Source: Candidatus Sungiibacteriota bacterium
GTDB lineage: Bacteria; Patescibacteriota; Minisyncoccia; Sungbacterales; SURF-37
Length of the DNA: 64,000 nt
Direction of reading: 5' to 3'
Assembly: GCA_016186145.1 (NCBI GenBank)
Contig: JACPMF010000004.1
Coordinates: 345 to 64,344 of the forward strand
Part shown: positions 2,486 through 17,505 of the stretch, one piece after another
Layout: each line of letters opens with the position of its first letter
Position numbering within the stretch: the first letter of the stretch is position 1
Position numbers and translations under genes: made by a program
The notes under the pieces: model-generated
The model's input: only the letters and a program-made list of their open reading frames with translations
What the model was told of the DNA's origin: nothing
Database searches by the model: none

Positions 2486-3325
2486 CTATCTCCTTTCACG
2501 CTCTCGTGCCGCAAAAAACTCCTCAAAGGCCTCGTCCCAATCTTCCCGGGAAGCAGAGGCGCTGACAGCAATAAAGGGCAGATTCAGCGAGCGGAATACG
2601 CCTTCAATTTCATTTCCATTCGCGGAGCCGGAAACAAAACAGCGCTCTCCCGACTCGGATGAATAAAGAAGAATGTCTCCAAAAAACCATGGAAGCCTGC
2701 CTTCTCGCGCATCCGCCACAACAACGGGGACGATATCAAGACCGGAAATCAGGCACCGCCTCAACTCTTCTTTGAAATCTCCCGTGTCATACCAGTCTGA
2801 AAATACGAAAGTGATCTGGGGTTTCCGGCCCATGGTACGAAGATATTCAAACAGTTTCGCCGGCCTCGTTGGAGGAACAGCGGCGGGAAGAATGGAAAGA
2901 TCGGCAAGCCGCTTTCGGGCCCTTACGCTACCGCTCAACGGCGGGAGATACGAGTCAACCTTCGAAGACCAAAGAAGAAATCCAACCTCGTTTGCGCCTT
3001 CCGAAAACCCCTCAGCAAGTTCACTGACGATTGCAAGCATCGCCAACCGTCGCGTCTCGTCTCCGAGGCTCGCTTCCATTGACGGAGTCCAGTCAAGCGC
3101 AAAGAGAATCCGCAGAGTGCGCTCCGCTCGCTTTACCCGAAGAAAAAATCTTTTATAAAGAGCGCTTCGCAGCGGATCAAAAGATGAGGAGGCAGGATGG
3201 TCTCCGGGCTGGAGCCGCCTTACCTCCTCAAGGTCGAAACCAACAAGCTCTTTTTGGTTTGACGGAAAACGCCCGGTTACCGATGTCTCTGCAAACCTCT
3301 TGAGCCGAAGCCGCGTTCTCTTCAC
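2486..3325 (-). CDS. DUF58 family protein (VWA-like, MoxR partner)
   Basis: 279 aa with LDWTPSM (DxSxS-like MIDAS); GTG start overlaps the moxR stop (gTGAag), indicating translational coupling. Confidence 0.7.
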   Translation of the reverse strand: MKRTRLRLKRFAETSVTGRFPSNQKELVGFDLEEVRRLQPGDHPASSSFDPLRSALYKRFFLRVKRAERTLRILFALDWTPSMEASLGDETRRLAMLAIVSELAEGFSEGANEVGFLLWSSKVDSYLPPLSGSVRARKRLADLSILPAAVPPTRPAKLFEYLRTMGRKPQITFVFSDWYDTGDFKEELRRCLISGLDIVPVVVADAREGRLPWFFGDILLYSSESGERCFVSGSANGNEIEGVFRSLNLPFIAVSASASREDWDEAFEEFFAARERERR

Positions 3326-4329
3326 GGCGAACTCCGTGATACCGGGACGCTCGCGAGGGCGGCCGCAATAACTTTATCGTTAGTTAGGCCCTTGCCCACG
3401 GCATCGGTATTCAAAAAGAACTTGCCGCGAAGAGCGGGATACGCCGCCTGCTTCACATGCCGCGGCAGCACCACAGACTCGCCTTCCAAAAAAGCGTAAA
3501 TCCGGCTTACCGTCTTAATGTCCTCAACACCGCGAACCGACGGGCTCGCCGGCATGCCGTTGATATCAAGAACAACGAAACCGGACTTGCGAATCCACTC
3601 GACAATTGCGCTTGCATACTCGACAAGCCAAGAACCCTCGTGAAAGTACGGGCGATACCAGTCAAAAATTCTGCCGGCGTACTCCAGAAGCTCCTCTGGC
3701 GTGAAAACCTTCTCAATCACGATCTCGCGCATCTTGCGATCTTCGGACGAGGCCGCGATTTTAAGGAGTTCAATATGGACAGGAAAATCGACACGAATCT
3801 TCACCAGGAAACGCTCGGCGAGCGCTTCGGGAATTTGGTACGTTCCGGTCGTCTCAATCGGATTAATGTCGGCTACCACGAAACGAAAATCAGGGAGACG
3901 GACAAGATCGCCTCGATAAGAAGAAACCCCTTCTTCCATGGCCGACATGAGATAGCTTTGGGTTTTTTCCGCTCCGCGGTTAAGCTCGTTTGCAAAGAAA
4001 ATTTCTGCATCAAGAAGCGGGCCGGGATCGATCCGCAGCCCCACTTCATGAGGCGAAACGGTGTGCGTCAGGTCATCTGGCATAAGGTTTGCATTAAATG
4101 GCAGCTTTCTAAAACGAGCTGAGACAACCGCGGCAATCGCCTCGATTGTCGTGGTCTTGCCAAGCCCCGGAGCGGACTCTACGAGAGCGTGCCCCTTGCC
4201 AAGCATCGCGACAAACGCATCGCGGACGAAATCATCGAGACCAATCACCACTTTCCCGATTTCTTTTCTTGCGCGCGAATATTTCTCCTGGAATTCTTCA
4301 CACATGCGGCGGAAATCTGCCTCATCCAT
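3322..4329 (-). CDS. moxR: MoxR-family AAA+ ATPase
   Basis: Walker A ESAPGLGKTT, typical MoxR length of 335 aa, GAAGGAG Shine-Dalgarno upstream. Confidence 0.85.
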   Translation of the reverse strand: MDEADFRRMCEEFQEKYSRARKEIGKVVIGLDDFVRDAFVAMLGKGHALVESAPGLGKTTTIEAIAAVVSARFRKLPFNANLMPDDLTHTVSPHEVGLRIDPGPLLDAEIFFANELNRGAEKTQSYLMSAMEEGVSSYRGDLVRLPDFRFVVADINPIETTGTYQIPEALAERFLVKIRVDFPVHIELLKIAASSEDRKMREIVIEKVFTPEELLEYAGRIFDWYRPYFHEGSWLVEYASAIVEWIRKSGFVVLDINGMPASPSVRGVEDIKTVSRIYAFLEGESVVLPRHVKQAAYPALRGKFFLNTDAVGKGLTNDKVIAAALASVPVSRSSP

Positions 4330-13328: not shown

Positions 13329-13407
13329 AGCTTAAGATATTTTTTAAAAACGCGCAAGATGAGGTGTTGAAAACAGTAACTTTTTAATTTATAGTTGCAT
13401 GAGATCA

Positions 13408-13491
13408 GGGCATGTGGCGGAACTGGTTTACGCGCACGACTCAAAATCGTGTGGCCTCACGGCCGTGTGGGTTCGACTCCCACCATGCCCA
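13408..13491 (+). tRNA. tRNA-Leu (anticodon CAA)
   Basis: Hand-folded class II tRNA: acceptor GGGCATG/CATGCCC, anticodon loop CTCAAAA, long variable arm, T-arm GTGGG-TTCGACT-CCCAC; 84 nt. Confidence 0.8.
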
Positions 13492-14200
13492 TTTTGTACC
13501 CAAAACGAAACTAACATTTAAAGAATTCGAATGGACGCCGCAACTTGCTTATGTTGTAGGACTTTTAGTAACCGACGGTAATTTATCTAGTGACGGTCGA
13601 CATATAATAATGCGCTCGTCAGATGTAGAATTGTTGAACACTTTCAAAAATTGCCTTAATATCAATAACAGAATTGGAAGAACACAAAACGGCAAAACGA
13701 TTTCTTATAGAGTACAATTCGGAAGTATACAATTTTACAACTGGCTGAAGAAGATAGGACTATTCCCCGCAAAAAGTTACACGATCGGTGAAATAGATAT
13801 TCCAGATAAATTTTTTAGAGATTATCTTCGTGGATGTATAGACGGCGATGGCAATATTTGTACGTACAAAGATTTATATAACGTATATAAAGGAAGAAAA
13901 TACGTCACTCAGCGACTATTTATAAAAATTGTGTCTGCAAGTAAAAAACATATCGTTTGGCTTCGGAATAAAATTACTGCCCTTAACGGCAGTAACGGAG
14001 CAATAATTAAAGACAGCCCGGCAGATAAACAACGGGTTCCAATGTGGATACTGAAATTTGCCAAAAAGGAATCACTACGGCTTCTCAGTTGGATTTACTA
14101 TCAACCAGACATCCCTTGCCTTGAACGTAAACATATGACAGCTGTGTATGCCATCGAAGAGATTAGCAAACAAAAACGGCGTGTATATTCTAGAATATAA
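13492..14200 (+). CDS. LAGLIDADG homing endonuclease (double-motif), free-standing; start codon uncertain
   Basis: Motif 1 LAYVVGLLVTDGNL and motif 2 YLRGCIDGDGNI. The reading frame is open back into tRNA-Leu and there is no canonical start between the tRNA end and motif 1. Confidence 0.65.
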
Positions 14201-14260
14201 ACACTTGAAGGCAACCTCGTGAGAGTTCAACTCTCTCCCGCGGCATTACGAACCTACTTA

Positions 14261-14290
14261 AACCCCGGCAAAGGCCGGGGTTTAAAATTT
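14261..14290 (+). terminator. rho-independent terminator after the homing-endonuclease gene
   Basis: aaccccggcaaaggccggggtttaaaattt. Confidence 0.6.
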
Positions 14291-14587
14291 ACCCTTTTAA
14301 ACAGGTTTTGGGCAAACGCAATAAAATAATGGGCGCGTCTGGATTCGAACCAGAGTTCCCGGGTGTAGAACTGCGCAGCCGCTTCGCGGCTTGCTCGTTA
14401 CACCCGCGAAAAGTCACCGCACCATCCCGAACAAATTGAGGTTAGGGTGCGCGATCCCGTACTTCCGCGATACTGACTCTGTACCATTACGGGTCAGCAG
14501 TTCGGGAGATGCGGGATCTGCGCCAACTTCTCGCTCCCTCTGGTCGCGGAAGTTGCGGGACTATTTAAACGCTTTTCGCCCTTCTCA

Positions 14588-14706
14588 ATTCATCCCGTTG
14601 GATTTTATAAAAATGGGCACTGCAGGGATCGGACCTGCGGCCTTCACAATGTCAATGTGACGCTCTACCACTGAGCTAAGTGCCCTAGAAAATCTAACGG
14701 GATGTC
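14588..14706. repeat. 16-bp inverted repeat (CATCCCGTTgGATTTT / AAAATCTAACGGGATG) bracketing tRNA-Val; ends resemble the MITE terminal inverted repeats
   Basis: Left 14588-14603 and right 14691-14706; 15/16 matches; the left end is preceded by ATTCAT. Confidence 0.6.
14614..14685 (-). tRNA. tRNA-Val (anticodon GAC)
   Basis: GGGCACTTAGCTCAGTGGTAGAGCGTCACATTGACATTGTGAAGGCCGCAGGTCCGATCCCTGCAGTGCCCA; cloverleaf folds, but the T-loop is TCCGATC (C at position 55, unusual). Confidence 0.75.
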
Positions 14707-14865: not shown

Positions 14866-15456
14866 CTAACTTTCTGCTTTGGTAAGCAGTAATTGATAAG
14901 TTTCGCGACGATTGTCGTCGACTTTTCGGGGCAGGAACGGCAAGGCTTTTTCGTAAGTTTGTGCCAGGCTGCCATTTGCGTTCGAATACATCCGATCAAA
15001 TCTTTGGATAATCTCATGTGCAACGCTTTGAATAAGCGGCATCCGTGAAGAACGGTATCTGCTTCCGAATTTTGATGTCCACGCAGGCCCCTGCGTGTTT
15101 CTGATATTTTCCTTGAGTTTCGGGAAATCAGTTTCTCCCTCCATATTGATAAGGAGCGGTGCTTGTTCGTAGCAAAATGGCATTGAGGGTTGCCATCTGG
15201 CTTCCACGACATTTTCATGCACTAAAAGTTTAACTGAAGGGGAAAGATATACCAATCTCGTGCCTGCTTTTCCGCCTTGGGCAAAAGCGAAGCGACAACC
15301 TTCAATTTCACGGATCCTTTTTGGGTGCATGATATTCCTTCCATGGCAGCCAGTAAGCCCGAAGCTGCCAAATTCCCAAAATGGATCACGTCGCGTATCG
15401 TTCGGATCATTCAACCGCGGCCTTCTCAGGTGGATAAGTATGACCTTGTCTTTCAC
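14866..15456 (-). CDS. hypothetical protein
   Basis: 196-aa ORF (the longer of two overlapping frames); no recognisable motif. Confidence 0.4.
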   Translation of the reverse strand: MKDKVILIHLRRPRLNDPNDTRRDPFWEFGSFGLTGCHGRNIMHPKRIREIEGCRFAFAQGGKAGTRLVYLSPSVKLLVHENVVEARWQPSMPFCYEQAPLLINMEGETDFPKLKENIRNTQGPAWTSKFGSRYRSSRMPLIQSVAHEIIQRFDRMYSNANGSLAQTYEKALPFLPRKVDDNRRETYQLLLTKAES

Positions 15457-15609
15457 TTAAACCTCCACAATCACAATAAAGACCTGCCCGGATTCTATGG
15501 TGGACAGAGAGCGATTGTCAATATCACACACCCTGCCGCGTCATTCCTATTTCTGGATAGATTCTCTCACCTCTCTCACAAAAAACAGCCCCATAAAATA
15601 AGGCTGCTT

Positions 15610-15849
15610 TTATGACAAAAAATGTCTTTTCAAGAACGCCCTGCCGGAGCCTGATTTTAGATATTTTTCGAAATTGAAAGCAACATATTTATTTTGAAAA
15701 GCGAAATAAGAAATTAATTTGATCGGCAATCTATTTTTTGTGGCTGGAACTTGCGCTTTATTATGTCTTACGATTCTGTCTTTTAGATCAGAAGTACATC
15801 CAATATAAAATCTTCTATCACAACATTCTAAAATATAGACATAGTTCAT
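15610..15849 (-). CDS. GIY-YIG nuclease superfamily protein (small, UPF0213-like)
   Basis: YVYILECCDRRFYIGCTSDLKDRIVRHN matches the GIY-YIG core; terminator hairpin downstream. Confidence 0.7.
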   Translation of the reverse strand: MNYVYILECCDRRFYIGCTSDLKDRIVRHNKAQVPATKNRLPIKLISYFAFQNKYVAFNFEKYLKSGSGRAFLKRHFLS

Positions 15850-15927
15850 AATAACGGGTTTTACCTCGCCGAAGCCAAGCCGAGTCCCGCCTTCGTTTTG
15901 CGGAGCAAAACTTCGGCGAGGCGAAGG

Positions 15928-15998
15928 CGGGAGTGGCAGGAGTCGAACCTGCAGTCACGGTTTTGGAGACCGTTGGTTTGCCATTAACCGACACTCCC
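15928..15998 (-). tRNA. tRNA-Trp (anticodon CCA)
   Basis: GGGAGTG...ACGGT-CTCCAAA-ACCGT...GCAGG-TTCGACT-CCTGC-CACTCCC; immediately downstream of rpmG, a conserved arrangement. Confidence 0.85.
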
Positions 15999-16014
15999 AC
16001 AAAAAAACGAGAGA

Positions 16015-16200
16015 TCATTTTTTCGTTTCTTTGTGACCGGTGTGTTTTCTGCACCAATTGCAAAATTTCTTCAGCTCAATCTTTTTCTCGACCGTTTTCT
16101 TGTTCTTGCGCGACCAGTAATTAACGCGCTTGCACTTCGTGCATTGCAACTTTATTAAATTTGGTTGCGGCATATTTTTATCTCTTTCAGCTAAACGCAA
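16015..16200 (-). CDS. rpmG: 50S ribosomal protein L33
   Basis: 61 aa: KRVNYWSRKNKK...LELKKFCNWCRKHTGHKETK, the L33 signature. Confidence 0.85.
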   Translation of the reverse strand: MRLAERDKNMPQPNLIKLQCTKCKRVNYWSRKNKKTVEKKIELKKFCNWCRKHTGHKETKK

Positions 16201-16239
16201 AATTAAAAACTAAAATGCGAAACTGACTAAAAGAAATCC

Positions 16240-16479
16240 TTATCTAGTTCTTTTCAGGAGTTTTAAAAACTCTTTTACTGAAAATTTTGCTTGCTTCAAA
16301 ATTTCATTCAATAACCACCGGGGTATATCAGCATTGTGATAAGGAATCGTGGTTTGGCGAGTTACATCACGAAAGTGTTGCAAACGAATATGACTTCCGC
16401 CCTGTCTTACAATTTTAAATCCCGCCTTAAGCAGGACACGAAGCAACGCTCTTGAGCTTATCATCGGCAAAATGCTCAT
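16240..16479 (-). CDS. hicA: HicA-family toxin (mRNA interferase)
   Basis: 79 aa; GFKIVRQGGSHIRLQH motif; overlaps hicB by 4 bp. Confidence 0.7.
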   Translation of the reverse strand: MSILPMISSRALLRVLLKAGFKIVRQGGSHIRLQHFRDVTRQTTIPYHNADIPRWLLNEILKQAKFSVKEFLKLLKRTR

Positions 16480-16754
16480 GGAACTGGCGCAAACAACCTT
16501 GATTTTGGCAGTCTGCCTACCGCCTTTCTCGTTTCATCAACAACGATTTTTCCATCTTCTATCACGCAGTCGCAATAAATTTCTATAGCGTCCTTGGCCA
16601 TTTTTTTTGCTTCAGTAAGCGTTTTTCCAAACGTTGCTACTTCGGGAAGAGAAATTCCCTTCACAAGGTAAACTCCTTCTTTAGCATCACGCCAAATAAG
16701 CACCTTGTAAGTACCATTTCGCGTCTGGATGGTAAATTCCCTTTTATTTTTCAT
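16476..16754 (-). CDS. hicB: HicB-family antitoxin
   Basis: 92 aa, UPF0150-like N-terminal domain (YKVLIWRDAKEGVYLVKGISLPEVATFGKTLTEAKKMAKDAIE). Confidence 0.65.
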   Translation of the reverse strand: MKNKREFTIQTRNGTYKVLIWRDAKEGVYLVKGISLPEVATFGKTLTEAKKMAKDAIEIYCDCVIEDGKIVVDETRKAVGRLPKSRLFAPVP

Positions 16755-16856: not shown

Positions 16857-16928
16857 AGCCTAGGGGGAGGATCGAACTCCCGACCTACTACTTACCATGC
16901 AGTTGCTCTACCACTGAGCTACCTAGGC
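16857..16928 (-). tRNA. tRNA-Thr (anticodon GGU)
   Basis: GCCTAGGTAGCTCAGTGGTAGAGCAACTGCATGGTAAGTAGTAGGTCGGGAGTTCGATCCTCCCCCTAGGC. Confidence 0.8.
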
Positions 16929-17505
16929 AATAATTCACAAGTATATTCCGAAGTTTTGTGTTATTAAAATAAACAGTCATAACACCATATTTTGTTTTCT
17001 CTCTGTAAGTTCCAATACTCCTAGCCGGAGTAATTGTTGGTTTCATAAACTGTTTTCTGCCAACACCTAATTGATTCTGCCAAAATACTATAGCATGATT
17101 TGGCTTAATATCGCTAAAAATTTGTAAGCCAAATTTTAATTTCGCCTTAGAAACACCACAGCATCTATGCAAAAACTTAATAAATATTTTAATTAGTGCT
17201 GGGTCTGTATTTCCAAGCCGTACCTGATTTTTACTCTTTTTACTTCCTTCACCCCAGTATAGTCCGACGCCGAGTCCAAATAATTTTGCATCTTCTAAGG
17301 TTGTGGGGATACGAATAATAAACGGGTCTCCCTTCGGATTATGCTTTATATACATTGCCTGAGAGATTGATCGTTTTTTAATTTTATGTTTCGCAAACCA
17401 GTAATTAACCTTGTGTTCTGAGCACTTAAGAAAAGAGGCGATTTCATGAACAGATTTTTTGTCGGCTTCATAAAGTTTTTTCAATTGTTTTGCCGGAAAC
17501 GACAT
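16888..17505 (-). CDS. LAGLIDADG-like homing endonuclease / HTH protein (single motif); 3-prime end overlaps tRNA-Thr by about 40 nt
   Basis: N-terminal HTH-like region, LFGLGVGLYWGEGSKK resembling a LAGLIDADG motif, and basic patches. Confidence 0.45.
   Translation of the reverse strand: MSFPAKQLKKLYEADKKSVHEIASFLKCSEHKVNYWFAKHKIKKRSISQAMYIKHNPKGDPFIIRIPTTLEDAKLFGLGVGLYWGEGSKKSKNQVRLGNTDPALIKIFIKFLHRCCGVSKAKLKFGLQIFSDIKPNHAIVFWQNQLGVGRKQFMKPTITPARSIGTYREKTKYGVMTVYFNNTKLRNILVNYCLGSSVVEQLHGK

Follow-up and report, generated by a model that had tools for sequence, protein, structure and literature searches.

We analyzed a 64,000-nucleotide stretch of DNA (hereafter, the window) from a Candidatus Sungiibacteriota bacterium, in which a complete tRNA-Leu(CAA) gene is followed on the same strand by an open reading frame (ORF) for a LAGLIDADG endonuclease, a 3′ remnant of tRNA-Leu(CAA) and a GC-rich hairpin (Table 1). 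The complete tRNA has the acceptor stem GGGCATG/CATGCCC and a discriminator A at 13491, with no encoded CCA. The stop codon of the ORF (14198–14200) contains the first base of the remnant, which corresponds to tRNA-profile positions 39–84 and comprises the end of the anticodon arm, the variable arm, the T arm (GAGAG/CTCTC), the acceptor 3′ strand CCGCGGC and a discriminator A.

Table 1 Features of the tRNA-Leu(CAA)–endonuclease locus and the neighboring tRNA-Val locus, in window coordinates.
Feature	Position	Strand	Basis or remark
Sigma-70-like promoter TTGAAA-17-TATAGT	13367..13395	+	10/12 matches; kept in L081
Complete tRNA-Leu(CAA)	13408..13491	+	ARAGORN; Rfam tRNA 60.2 bits
TTTT spacer (4 nt), tRNA end to family start-codon position	13492..13495	+	Sequence; family median 6 nt
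LAGLIDADG endonuclease ORF	13496..14200	+	234 codons + TAA; bounds set by homology
GTA (Val) codon at family start-codon position	13496..13498	+	Family alignment
Motif 1, LAYVVGLLVTDG	13544-13579	+	Catalytic Asp27
First in-frame canonical start (ATG)	13610..13612	+	3′ of motif 1
Motif 2, LRGCIDGDG	13826-13852	+	Catalytic Asp118
tRNA-Leu(CAA) 3′ remnant (46 nt)	14200..14245	+	nhmmer E=4.5e-6
GC-rich hairpin CCCCGGC-AAAG-GCCGGGG	14263..14280	+	Read from sequence; A and T runs either side
tRNA-Val remnant (26 nt)	14330-14355		25/26 to intact tRNA-Val of L081
tRNA-Val locus insert (258 nt)	14356-14613		

A first-pass annotation of the window had read both LAGLIDADG motifs as intact, and sequence, Pfam and PDB profile matches bore this out. 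Pfam LAGLIDADG_3 (PF14528) matched the first domain only (24.4 bits, cut-off 22.5; E=3.5e-5), and a family profile searched against PDB matched I-Tsp061I (2dch; E=8.6e-7) across both motifs. We also compared an AlphaFold (AF2) model (pLDDT 92.1, pTM 0.88) with PDB by Foldseek: the best 50 matches were LAGLIDADG proteins in 50 of 50 cases—headed by 2dch (E=4.7e-11, TM 0.61/0.69)—and the model displays two tandem alpha-beta-beta-alpha-beta-beta-alpha domains. The comparison by HMM and structure that the annotation had proposed as a check thereby upheld the family assignment. Both catalytic aspartates are invariant in alignments of 30 and 38 family sequences. The ORF is, as judged from sequence and model, the gene of a two-motif monomeric LAGLIDADG endonuclease, with predicted cleavage activity; enzymes of this type cut DNA site-specifically and leave 4-nt 3′ overhangs.

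The annotation had further described the gene as free-standing, and our searches agree. When Rfam was used to look for the group I intron context that it had named as a possible alternative, no enclosing intron was detected: there was no group I or II match at E≤1 in the 9 kb from 11 to 20 kb, and no match to any intron family at E≤10 in the 1.35 kb from 13350 to 14700. Likewise, no intein flanks surround the ORF, and since it is preceded by 4 nt and followed by 0 nt, there is no space for a ribozyme core on either side. Bacterial tRNA-Leu genes are known group I intron hosts and several of the tRNA remnants described below begin in the anticodon loop, as might be expected if the tRNA carried a group I (or other) intron with the ORF inside it. 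Yet the upstream tRNA is complete and uninterrupted, which, together with the absent intron matches and the minimal flanks, renders this scenario scarcely conceivable.

To place the gene in a wider context, we sought relatives in one genome each of 185,579 species, found 405 and kept 80 loci. tRNA-Leu(CAA) lies directly upstream on the same strand in 69 of the 80, with the first in-frame start codon (ATG in 65, GTG in three, TTG in one) 0–57 nt past the tRNA end (median 6) and at most 14 nt past it in 60 of the 69. One further locus, L032, has the same order but is truncated by the contig end, and in four non-CPR members the order is reversed, the endonuclease gene sitting just upstream of tRNA-Leu(CAA). 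As a negative control, we collected unselected tRNA-Leu(CAA) loci from one metagenome scan with the anticodon-arm pattern CACGACTCAAAATCGTG, which returned mostly non-CPR tRNAs and contributed no further CPR alleles of the unoccupied type; an endonuclease gene was present in none of these 76 mostly non-CPR loci. Family identity across CPR classes is 50–76%. IMG/VR viral contigs held no close relatives (best identity ≤36%), and carriage by phages is not supported by such distant matches. A search of openly accessible literature returned nothing on tRNA-linked LAGLIDADG genes in CPR. The genes are best read as a putative free-standing two-domain family specific to the tRNA-Leu(CAA) locus of CPR/Patescibacteria, with the reverse order in a few other phyla. 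The annotation's picture of an endonuclease wedged between two tRNA loci was thus too simple: the family is tightly tied to one tRNA, and what follows the gene is a 3′ fragment of that same tRNA.

The tight spacing bears on how the gene may be expressed. There is no space for a promoter between tRNA and ORF, and the only promoter-like site that could drive both—a predicted function—lies 12 nt 5′ of the tRNA. A Shine-Dalgarno-like motif precedes one of 69 family genes, compared with 14 of 59 neighboring genes, and in many of the neighboring genes the ATG is preceded, at a distance of about 7 nt, by the end of a –10-like box. The lineage of the window seems, from these sequence signals, to use leaderless mRNAs; the endonuclease gene probably shares a transcript with the tRNA, and its translation probably proceeds from a near-leaderless mRNA, which we infer would arise by RNase Z-type release of the tRNA 3′ end. 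The hairpin downstream of the remnant, which is kept along with its flank TTTAAAATTTACCC in L081, is likely to mark the end of this putative transcription unit; a terminator scan did not call it, its T run being too short.

We then turned to the tRNA fragments. Remnants of tRNA-Leu(CAA) with a CAA anticodon loop lie 3′ of the stop codon in the window and in L019, L021, L023, L025, L026, L055, L071, L075, and L088, so that in the window and at least nine other loci the endonuclease is followed by a second copy of the host gene's 3′ part. Remnants are detectable in a minority of family loci, and their starts vary from locus to locus (tRNA positions about 10, 29–31, 36–39, or 51–53). The window remnant is native-like, matching the intact tRNA of the endonuclease-less Sungbacteria locus L251 at 35 of 39 positions, as against a local match of 16/21 to the window's own tRNA. 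The working tRNA of the window, on the other hand, is unlike the six tRNA-Leu(CAA) genes found in Sungbacteria loci without endonuclease and almost the same as that of L081/L082. In L088 the roles are exchanged: the working tRNA looks native, the remnant does not.

Integrative elements classically target the 3′ ends of tRNA genes and duplicate a 3′ stretch of the tRNA when they insert; an integrase-type island with the endonuclease as mere cargo and the fragment as a leftover would therefore account for part of this layout. However, neither the window nor the other inspected loci encode an integrase between the tRNA and the remnant, where the "island" would amount to the 705-nt ORF alone, and at 60 or more loci the gene starts at a near-constant distance of about 6 nt from the tRNA. 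Moreover, att duplications are identical when formed and usually short, whereas the remnants extend back as far as the anticodon loop or the D arm, and their sequences diverge from that of the working tRNA. We consider such an island highly improbable.

Close relatives offered a direct view of the site with and without the gene. We compared Sungbacteria loci with common parAB/tRNA-Leu synteny, in which tRNA-Leu(CAA) is divergent from parAB: the window and L088 are occupied, L081/L082 carry a deletion scar (the same tRNA, a 21-nt remnant and then the same hairpin), and L083, L084, L086, L251, and L252 are empty. There is thus presence/absence polymorphism at one site among relatives, and the occupied allele retains a complete tRNA-Leu(CAA). 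Between the window and L088 endonucleases, pN is 0.14 and pS 0.79, arguing for long-lasting purifying selection. Across the family, endonuclease similarity and adjacent-tRNA similarity show a Spearman correlation of 0.06, from which it follows that the tRNA is not simply carried along with the endonuclease gene over long times; co-transfer of the whole tRNA as a general rule is unsupported. By eye, no systematic protective sequence difference separates endonuclease-linked from unoccupied tRNAs.

The same data speak to whether the protein is selfish at all, or rather a domesticated LAGLIDADG-fold factor of the host that binds DNA or RNA on behalf of tRNA-Leu(CAA), like WhiA or maturases. Very tight synteny, the degree of identity maintained across CPR classes and a pN far below pS would all suit a host factor, and WhiA and maturases are among the Foldseek matches of the modeled endonuclease. 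Against this, both catalytic aspartates are invariant, the gene is unevenly distributed, close relatives included, some of which have an empty site or a deletion scar, displaced tRNA fragments mark insertions, and start-less and deleted copies are tolerated. Domestication appears very unlikely on balance.

The window copy itself has a lesion at its start. It had been noted that no canonical start codon lies between the tRNA 3′ end and motif 1, and a codon scan confirmed this: there is no in-frame ATG, GTG, or TTG among the codons from 13493 to 13609. The NCBI call (HYW90_01030, 196 aa) begins at ATG 13610, and its product would be without the first catalytic motif. At the family start-codon position the window has GTA, its sole departure at the 58 columns that are ≥90% conserved in the family. 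The second-closest fetched locus, L002, reads GTG CCC AAA where the window reads GTA CCC AAA, and GTG starts are used by L002, L060, and one further relative; most simply, GTA derives from GTG by one transition. With GTA at this position, the full enzyme is probably no longer translated from the window copy, the rest of the ORF being intact. Of the three options the annotation had left side by side (non-canonical start, read-through, recent pseudogene), the last fares best and the other two rank below it: judging from its sequence, the window copy has probably lost its start codon and been newly inactivated. Decay of family members is real, given another start-less copy (L051) and the fully deleted allele in the closest relative.

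Could the window copy still be expressed, either from a non-canonical start (GUA at 13496, ACG at 13505 or 13535) or from the tRNA-internal AUG at 13412? The body of the ORF is flawless, near-cognate ACG codons are in frame, and—as the annotation had correctly stated—the frame is open back through the tRNA, namely from 13412. With about 10 nt separating that AUG from the predicted start of transcription, in a lineage seemingly using leaderless mRNAs, initiation there on unprocessed transcripts would give a 262-aa protein with a 28-residue extension. Such openness is, however, not particular to the endonuclease frame: of 70 related loci, 42 have no stop across the tRNA in that frame, as against 42 and 38 in the two remaining frames (Fisher p=0.77). 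The open frame is thus a matter of chance and not a product of selection. In addition, the tRNA fold and its processing would be expected to compete with ribosomes, GUA is two positions off AUG, the start codon being ATG or GTG in 68 of 69 relatives, and a single lesion is also what very recent inactivation would leave. Continued expression therefore strikes us as unlikely.

GTA might also reflect an error of assembly or consensus calling, or a minor variant, in a population that carries GTG or ATG and a normally active gene. The source is a metagenome-assembled genome, the codon is one base from the GTG of the three relatives above, and the remainder of the ORF is undamaged. Against this, the protein collection provides no second copy for comparison: the window protein matches P0001 (100% identity, 83% coverage), a cluster whose single member comes from one contig, with the next relative at 76% identity. 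A base error at one particular functional codon is a priori rare, and the start-less L051 and the deleted allele in the closest relative show that decay does occur, so that we regard an artefact as decidedly unlikely.

Taken together, we favor, with a probability of roughly 60%, a joint reading in which the family homes into tRNA-Leu(CAA) and displaces the native 3′ part of that gene, and in which the window copy stands at the first step of decay. Counting against it are the complete tRNA of the occupied allele with no evident protective difference, the near-absent correlation between endonuclease and tRNA similarity, the native-looking working tRNA of L088, and the scattered starts of remnants that only a minority of loci show. 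Both the cleavage target and the repair route are inferred, the tRNA-Leu(CAA) gene being taken as the target on account of the linkage in both gene orders. The family enzyme would cut an unoccupied tRNA-Leu(CAA) gene, and repair from an occupied allele would import the working tRNA (or its 3′ part) together with the endonuclease gene, leaving the native tRNA 3′ part downstream as a dead fragment, as in fungal mitochondrial "mobile ORF" hybrids. Having neither a promoter nor a ribosome-binding site of its own, the endonuclease gene would be transcribed from the tRNA promoter as a 3′ trailer; tRNA 3′-end processing would free an mRNA with its AUG about 6 nt from the 5′ end, to be translated in a leaderless-like manner. 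After fixation the endonuclease gene would decay, the window copy representing the first step. The wider proposition—that a large, undescribed bacterial LAGLIDADG family is specialized on tRNA-Leu(CAA), replaces the gene or its 3′ part, and is expressed as a tRNA trailer turned near-leaderless mRNA, a bacterial form of tRNA punctuation—is put forward tentatively, as we give it somewhat less than even odds.

The surroundings of the gene (13.4–17.7 kb) had been proposed to be a hotspot of mobile DNA, including a second homing-endonuclease-like ORF. The former part holds insofar as the window carries insertions that L081 does not (hicBA, GIY-YIG plus ORF196, a replaced tRNA-Val and the LAGLIDADG gene), but the latter is unsupported: Pfam, PDB sequence search and Foldseek gave no backing to ORF 17505..16888 as an endonuclease. 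ORF196 of the window is not homologous to the 196-aa ORF of L081, which is instead a homolog of ORF205 (P0254). The tRNA-Val locus of the window consists of a new, complete tRNA-Val(GAC), an insert and a remnant. This repeats the layout of the tRNA-Leu locus, with a working tRNA, an insert and a native-like remnant. The insert contains no ORF, matches no Rfam family and resembles nothing in 88 loci. As part of the wider proposition above, this second locus suggests that replacing and displacing a tRNA in the same way may also bring in a structured non-coding RNA.

If the family-level part of this reading is true, these loci would allow intron-less homing into an RNA gene to be studied cleanly, as it occurs in cellular bacteria, with occupied, decaying, deleted, and empty alleles available for comparison. 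They would also provide natural meganucleases with probable tRNA-gene targets, of which several hundred sequence variants are in hand, and would make it possible to test whether tRNA processing creates mRNAs for leaderless translation in CPR, whose gene expression is almost unstudied. The window alone, holding a start-less and probably dead copy, is a modest result. For annotation, the family-level reading would imply three warnings: family genes are routinely mis-started, either with an N-terminal extension through the tRNA or cut short at an internal Met, HYW90_01030 being an example; the tRNA fragments beside them are scars, not genes; and tRNAs at such loci may be imported, so that tRNA-based inference may be misled.

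Several known systems invite comparison. The GIY-YIG enzyme SegB of phage T4 and the F-Tfl enzymes of T5 are free-standing homing endonucleases encoded in phage tRNA gene clusters; they are of GIY-YIG or HNH type and cut the tRNA-gene DNA of related genomes that lack them. Like the tRNA-Leu family, their genes lie among tRNA genes without an intron or intein; unlike it, they are phage-borne and are not known to keep to one particular tRNA with a constant 6-nt spacing. We know of no description of a displaced tRNA fragment for SegB or the F-Tfl enzymes. SegB is also the subject of PMC13096335. The archaeal, intron-encoded I-Tsp061I and I-DmoI, the best structural and profile matches, have the two-domain monomer fold in common with the family. 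CPR bacteria, too, carry many LAGLIDADG genes, in rRNA introns, in a study that does not mention tRNA (PMC11270868). All of these enzymes, archaeal and CPR, reside inside rRNA introns or insertions, whereas the window gene stands free beside a tRNA.

To our knowledge, tRNA punctuation has not been described as an expression route of a bacterial homing endonuclease. In mitochondrial tRNA punctuation (e.g., PMC3790967), the mRNA comes straight after the tRNA and there is no ribosome-binding site, as is predicted for the window. Excision of the tRNA in the tRNA-Leu family would, by analogy, give an mRNA beginning at or a few nt from the AUG, as it does in mitochondria (PMC3790967).

The closest parallel in layout is found in mitochondrial hybrids of Glomus and Allomyces, each composed of a gene core, an inserted C-terminus, an endonuclease ORF and the native C-terminus (PMC3630166). 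Hosts of these mobile ORFs are atp6 of Allomyces macrogynus and atp6, atp9, cox2, and nad3 of Glomus, and a free-standing LAGLIDADG or GIY-YIG ORF sits in the 3′ part of the host gene (PMC3630166), as it would in the tRNA-Leu family. In the hybrids, the working gene ends in an inserted 3′ copy and the unused native 3′ part follows right after the ORF, where it resembles the gene of close relatives; the window may follow the same plan, its tRNA-Leu remnant resembling L251 and its tRNA-Val remnant L081. The tRNA-Leu family differs in that its host gene is a tRNA and not a protein gene, its host a bacterium and not a mitochondrion, and no in-frame fusion is involved; because the acceptor stem is paired, an imported 3′ strand also calls for a 5′ strand that fits it. 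Finally, and again unlike those hybrids, the tRNA-Leu family keeps to a single kind of tRNA in hundreds of host species.

The gene directly behind tRNA-Leu(CAA) in the window, which comes from a Candidatus Sungbacteria metagenome-assembled genome, had been described in the first-pass annotation as a two-motif LAGLIDADG ORF without a canonical start, and intact motifs, Pfam, profile and fold matches all agree with this description. Pfam LAGLIDADG_3 scored above threshold (24.4 bits; cut-off, 22.5), a profile of the family matched the archaeal intron enzyme I-Tsp061I over both motifs (E=8.6e-7), and the 50 best PDB matches of the AlphaFold model (pLDDT 92.1, pTM 0.88) were LAGLIDADG proteins only, led by the I-Tsp061I structure 2dch (E=4.7e-11). 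No ATG, GTG or TTG occurs among the in-frame codons 13493–13609; the earliest canonical start, ATG 13610, lies past motif 1 and underlies the NCBI gene call HYW90_01030 (100% identity, 83% query coverage in the protein search). The frame being open back through the tRNA, as previously noted, is uninformative, since all three frames are similarly stop-free across the tRNA at 70 loci (42 in the endonuclease frame, 42 and 38 in the others; p=0.77). Nor is the gene intron-borne: intron families gave no matches at E<=1 on the surrounding 9 kb or E<=10 on 1.35 kb, and a ribozyme would not fit, as the ORF starts 4 nt past the tRNA and a tRNA remnant begins inside the ORF's stop codon.

Features of the tRNA-Leu(CAA) endonuclease locus and the neighboring tRNA cluster (window coordinates)
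Feature	Position	Strand	Basis or remark
Promoter-like TTGAAA-17-TATAGT, sole such site, before tRNA	13367-13395	+	Sequence scan
tRNA-Leu(CAA)	13408-13491	+	ARAGORN; Rfam 60.2 bits
Endonuclease reading frame	open from 13412, TAA at 14198-14200	+	ORF reading
LAGLIDADG motif 1 LAYVVGLLVTDG, intact	13544-13579	+	Sequence reading
LAGLIDADG motif 2 LRGCIDGDG, intact	13826-13852	+	Sequence reading
tRNA-Leu(CAA) remnant	14200-14245	+	Profile positions 39-84, E=4.5e-6
26-nt 3' tRNA-Val remnant	14355..14330	-	25/26 identical to intact, different tRNA-Val of L081
258-nt non-coding insert, 54% GC, strongly structured	14613..14356	-	Fold z = -4.9 on slightly wider span
Complete new tRNA-Val(GAC)	14685..14614	-	New relative to L081, which has a different tRNA-Val
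205-aa ORF, after tRNA-Leu(TAG), 3' end overlapping tRNA-Thr(GGT) by 41 nt	17505..16888	-	Sequence reading

A protein search returned 240 homologues, nearly all of 232–250 aa and from CPR bacteria, whose N-termini read MPKxKLPxKxFxWTPxLAY. The V encoded by GTA (13496–13498) aligns exactly with their initial M and, in a 30-sequence alignment, this start is the only one of 58 columns conserved at >=90% at which the window deviates. Judged from this alignment, the missing start is a single lesion at the family start codon. The second-closest fetched locus (L002) begins GTG CCC AAA and the window GTA CCC AAA, which makes one G-to-A transition the simplest history. An assembly error may alternatively account for the GTA. 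Relative to its closest relative (L088; 76% amino acid identity), the gene shows a pN of 0.14 and a pS, itself saturated, of 0.79, arguing for purifying selection through most of its history. The window copy is an ordinary family member that has newly become start-less; one other family locus, L051, likewise lacks a start.

Taking one genome per species, we found 405 relatives and fetched 80 loci, 69 of which carry tRNA-Leu(CAA) directly upstream on the same strand; in L032, the order is the same and a contig end cuts the locus. The distance from tRNA end to earliest in-frame start (65 ATG, three GTG, one TTG) is 0–57 nt, with a median of 6 and <=14 nt in 60 of the 69, and GGAG, GAGG or AGGA stands at −16 to −4 of just one of these genes. 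Adjacency to tRNA-Leu(CAA) is the family's hallmark. The order is reversed in four members, found in Anaerolineales, Rokubacteria and Methylomirabilota (L061, L068, L070, L080; ~2790–3800), with a helix-turn-helix-like N-terminal extension on the endonuclease, an intact tRNA-Leu(CAA) ~5–30 nt past the stop or overlapping it, and no detectable partial tRNA copy upstream. No close relatives were found in IMG/VR viral contigs, and none of 76 unselected metagenome tRNA-Leu(CAA) loci has this gene. A different LAGLIDADG_3 ORF (264 aa; 287–1081 of L246, a Yanofskybacteria contig) begins 80 nt past tRNA-Thr(TGT) and reaches into tRNA-Tyr(GTA), so tRNA-linked LAGLIDADG genes may be a broader habit of CPR genomes. 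Genes beginning a few nucleotides past a tRNA are systematically mis-started in annotation: public calls for this family often begin inside or before the tRNA (the equivalent of 13412–13491 in the window), as in database proteins P0005, P0009, P0021, P0027, P0028 and P0033, adding spurious N-terminal extensions such as ...CGFESH..., which is translated tRNA, and others, such as HYW90_01030 (196 aa), begin too late, at an internal Met.

A profile built from 78 tRNA-Leu(CAA) genes and run downstream of each tRNA revealed a partial tRNA-Leu(CAA) directly after the endonuclease stop in the window and in L023, L025, L019, L021, L055, L071, L026, L075 and L088. These remnants begin at tRNA position ~10 (L023), 29–31 (L071, L075), 36–39 (window, L019, L025) or 51–53 (others), and the CAA anticodon loop still recognizable in L023, L071 and L075 argues that they come from the same tRNA species. 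In L071, where the remnant lies ~690–760 nt past the tRNA end, a ~60-nt GC-rich hairpin-like insertion splits the T loop. With its CCGCGGC acceptor and GAGAG/CTCTC T stem, the window remnant is dissimilar to the window's working tRNA (16/21 local match); it shares 35 of 39 positions with the intact tRNA-Leu(CAA) of L251, a Sungbacteria locus that is unoccupied.

In Sungbacteria, tRNA-Leu(CAA) is divergent from parAB or parB; we anchored allele comparisons on ParB homologues. L088 is occupied, with an ATG 4 nt past the encoded CCA and the same remnant acceptor as the window; L083, L084, L086, L251 and L252 are empty, with an ordinary trailer after the tRNA. L081/L082 (two samples; ParB 81% identical to the window's) share the window's promoter, and their tRNA is almost the same as the window's; immediately behind it come a 21-nt tRNA remnant, TTCGACTCCCTCCCTCGGTAT, and then the hairpin and flank seen in the window. 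Because the T stem of the window remnant is self-complementary, the window arrangement is ancestral, and L081 derives from it by deletion of 13492–14225. Read together, the alleles trace the stages through which a homing endonuclease gene is expected to pass: invasion, then decay (here by start loss), then deletion.

Mechanistically, by analogy with mobile-ORF gene hybrids of mitochondria, the endonuclease would cut unoccupied tRNA-Leu(CAA) genes, and repair off an occupied allele would bring in the endonuclease gene together with the whole tRNA or just its 3' part; acceptor-stem pairing would favor co-conversion of the whole tRNA. Endonuclease and adjacent-tRNA similarity are essentially uncorrelated (rho 0.06), and the native-looking working tRNA of L088 implies that the imported segment varies or was overwritten by repeated events. 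As the only promoter-like site precedes the tRNA, and neither a promoter nor a ribosome-binding site would fit behind it, the ORF would be transcribed as the tRNA's 3' trailer, and 3'-end processing would leave an mRNA with its AUG ~6 nt from the 5' end. Leaderless translation of this mRNA is plausible: at Sungbacteria loci L081, L083, L084, L086 and L251 (at the starts of relA/spoT and parB, among others), Shine-Dalgarno-like motifs are rare (14 of 59 neighboring genes) and a TAnAAT-like −10 box often ends ~7 nt ahead of the ATG (as in TATACAATAAAGC-ATG), a pattern suggesting that the lineage commonly makes leaderless mRNAs. Leaderless initiation is strongly AUG-dependent, and the GUA of the window copy should therefore abolish it. 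We put the composite explanation at roughly 60%; we are far more confident of fold, linkage and mobility, and less confident of cleavage target, repair route and expression mechanism.

The suggestion that this tRNA cluster is a mobile-DNA hotspot gains support from lineage-specific insertions relative to L081. In window 14866–16754 versus L081 1847–2305, these comprise hicB/hicA between tRNA-Thr(GGT) and rpmG, and a 79-aa GIY-YIG ORF plus the 196-aa ORF196 (no Pfam match) between tRNA-Trp and tRNA-Val, which 12 nt separate in L081; the tRNA-Val(GAC), 258-nt insert and 26-nt remnant are further ones. Small genes pile up directly behind tRNA genes in this cluster. The window's tRNA-Val(GAC) itself appears, by this comparison, to have been replaced, in the same replace-and-displace layout as the tRNA-Leu module but with different cargo: the insert contains no ORF, matches no Rfam family, has no relatives among 88 loci, and from its predicted fold looks like a structured RNA of unfamiliar kind. 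The 205-aa ORF, proposed earlier as a second homing endonuclease, found no backing as such in Pfam, and PDB searches by sequence and by fold (AF2 model, pLDDT 86.9) gave no significant match of any kind. The ORF belongs to a very large CPR family that lacks annotation, comprises at least 1354 clusters of ~197 aa and has a helix-turn-helix-like segment at the N-terminus; at all four sampled loci, it occupies the tRNA-Thr/Tyr-rpmG-tRNA-Trp region.

We found nothing on a tRNA-linked LAGLIDADG family in the open-access literature; a study describing CPR rRNA-intron LAGLIDADG enzymes does not mention tRNA (PMC11270868). The closest layout is that of the mobile-ORF (mORF) gene hybrids of Allomyces and Glomus mitochondria, in which the downstream C-terminus is the native one, matching those of close relatives, and the insertion has supplied a foreign one (PMC3630166). 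These hybrids share the window's order of working gene, endonuclease ORF and native 3' part, and we class the family pattern as free-standing homing endonucleases accompanied by partial gene duplication in the mORF style.
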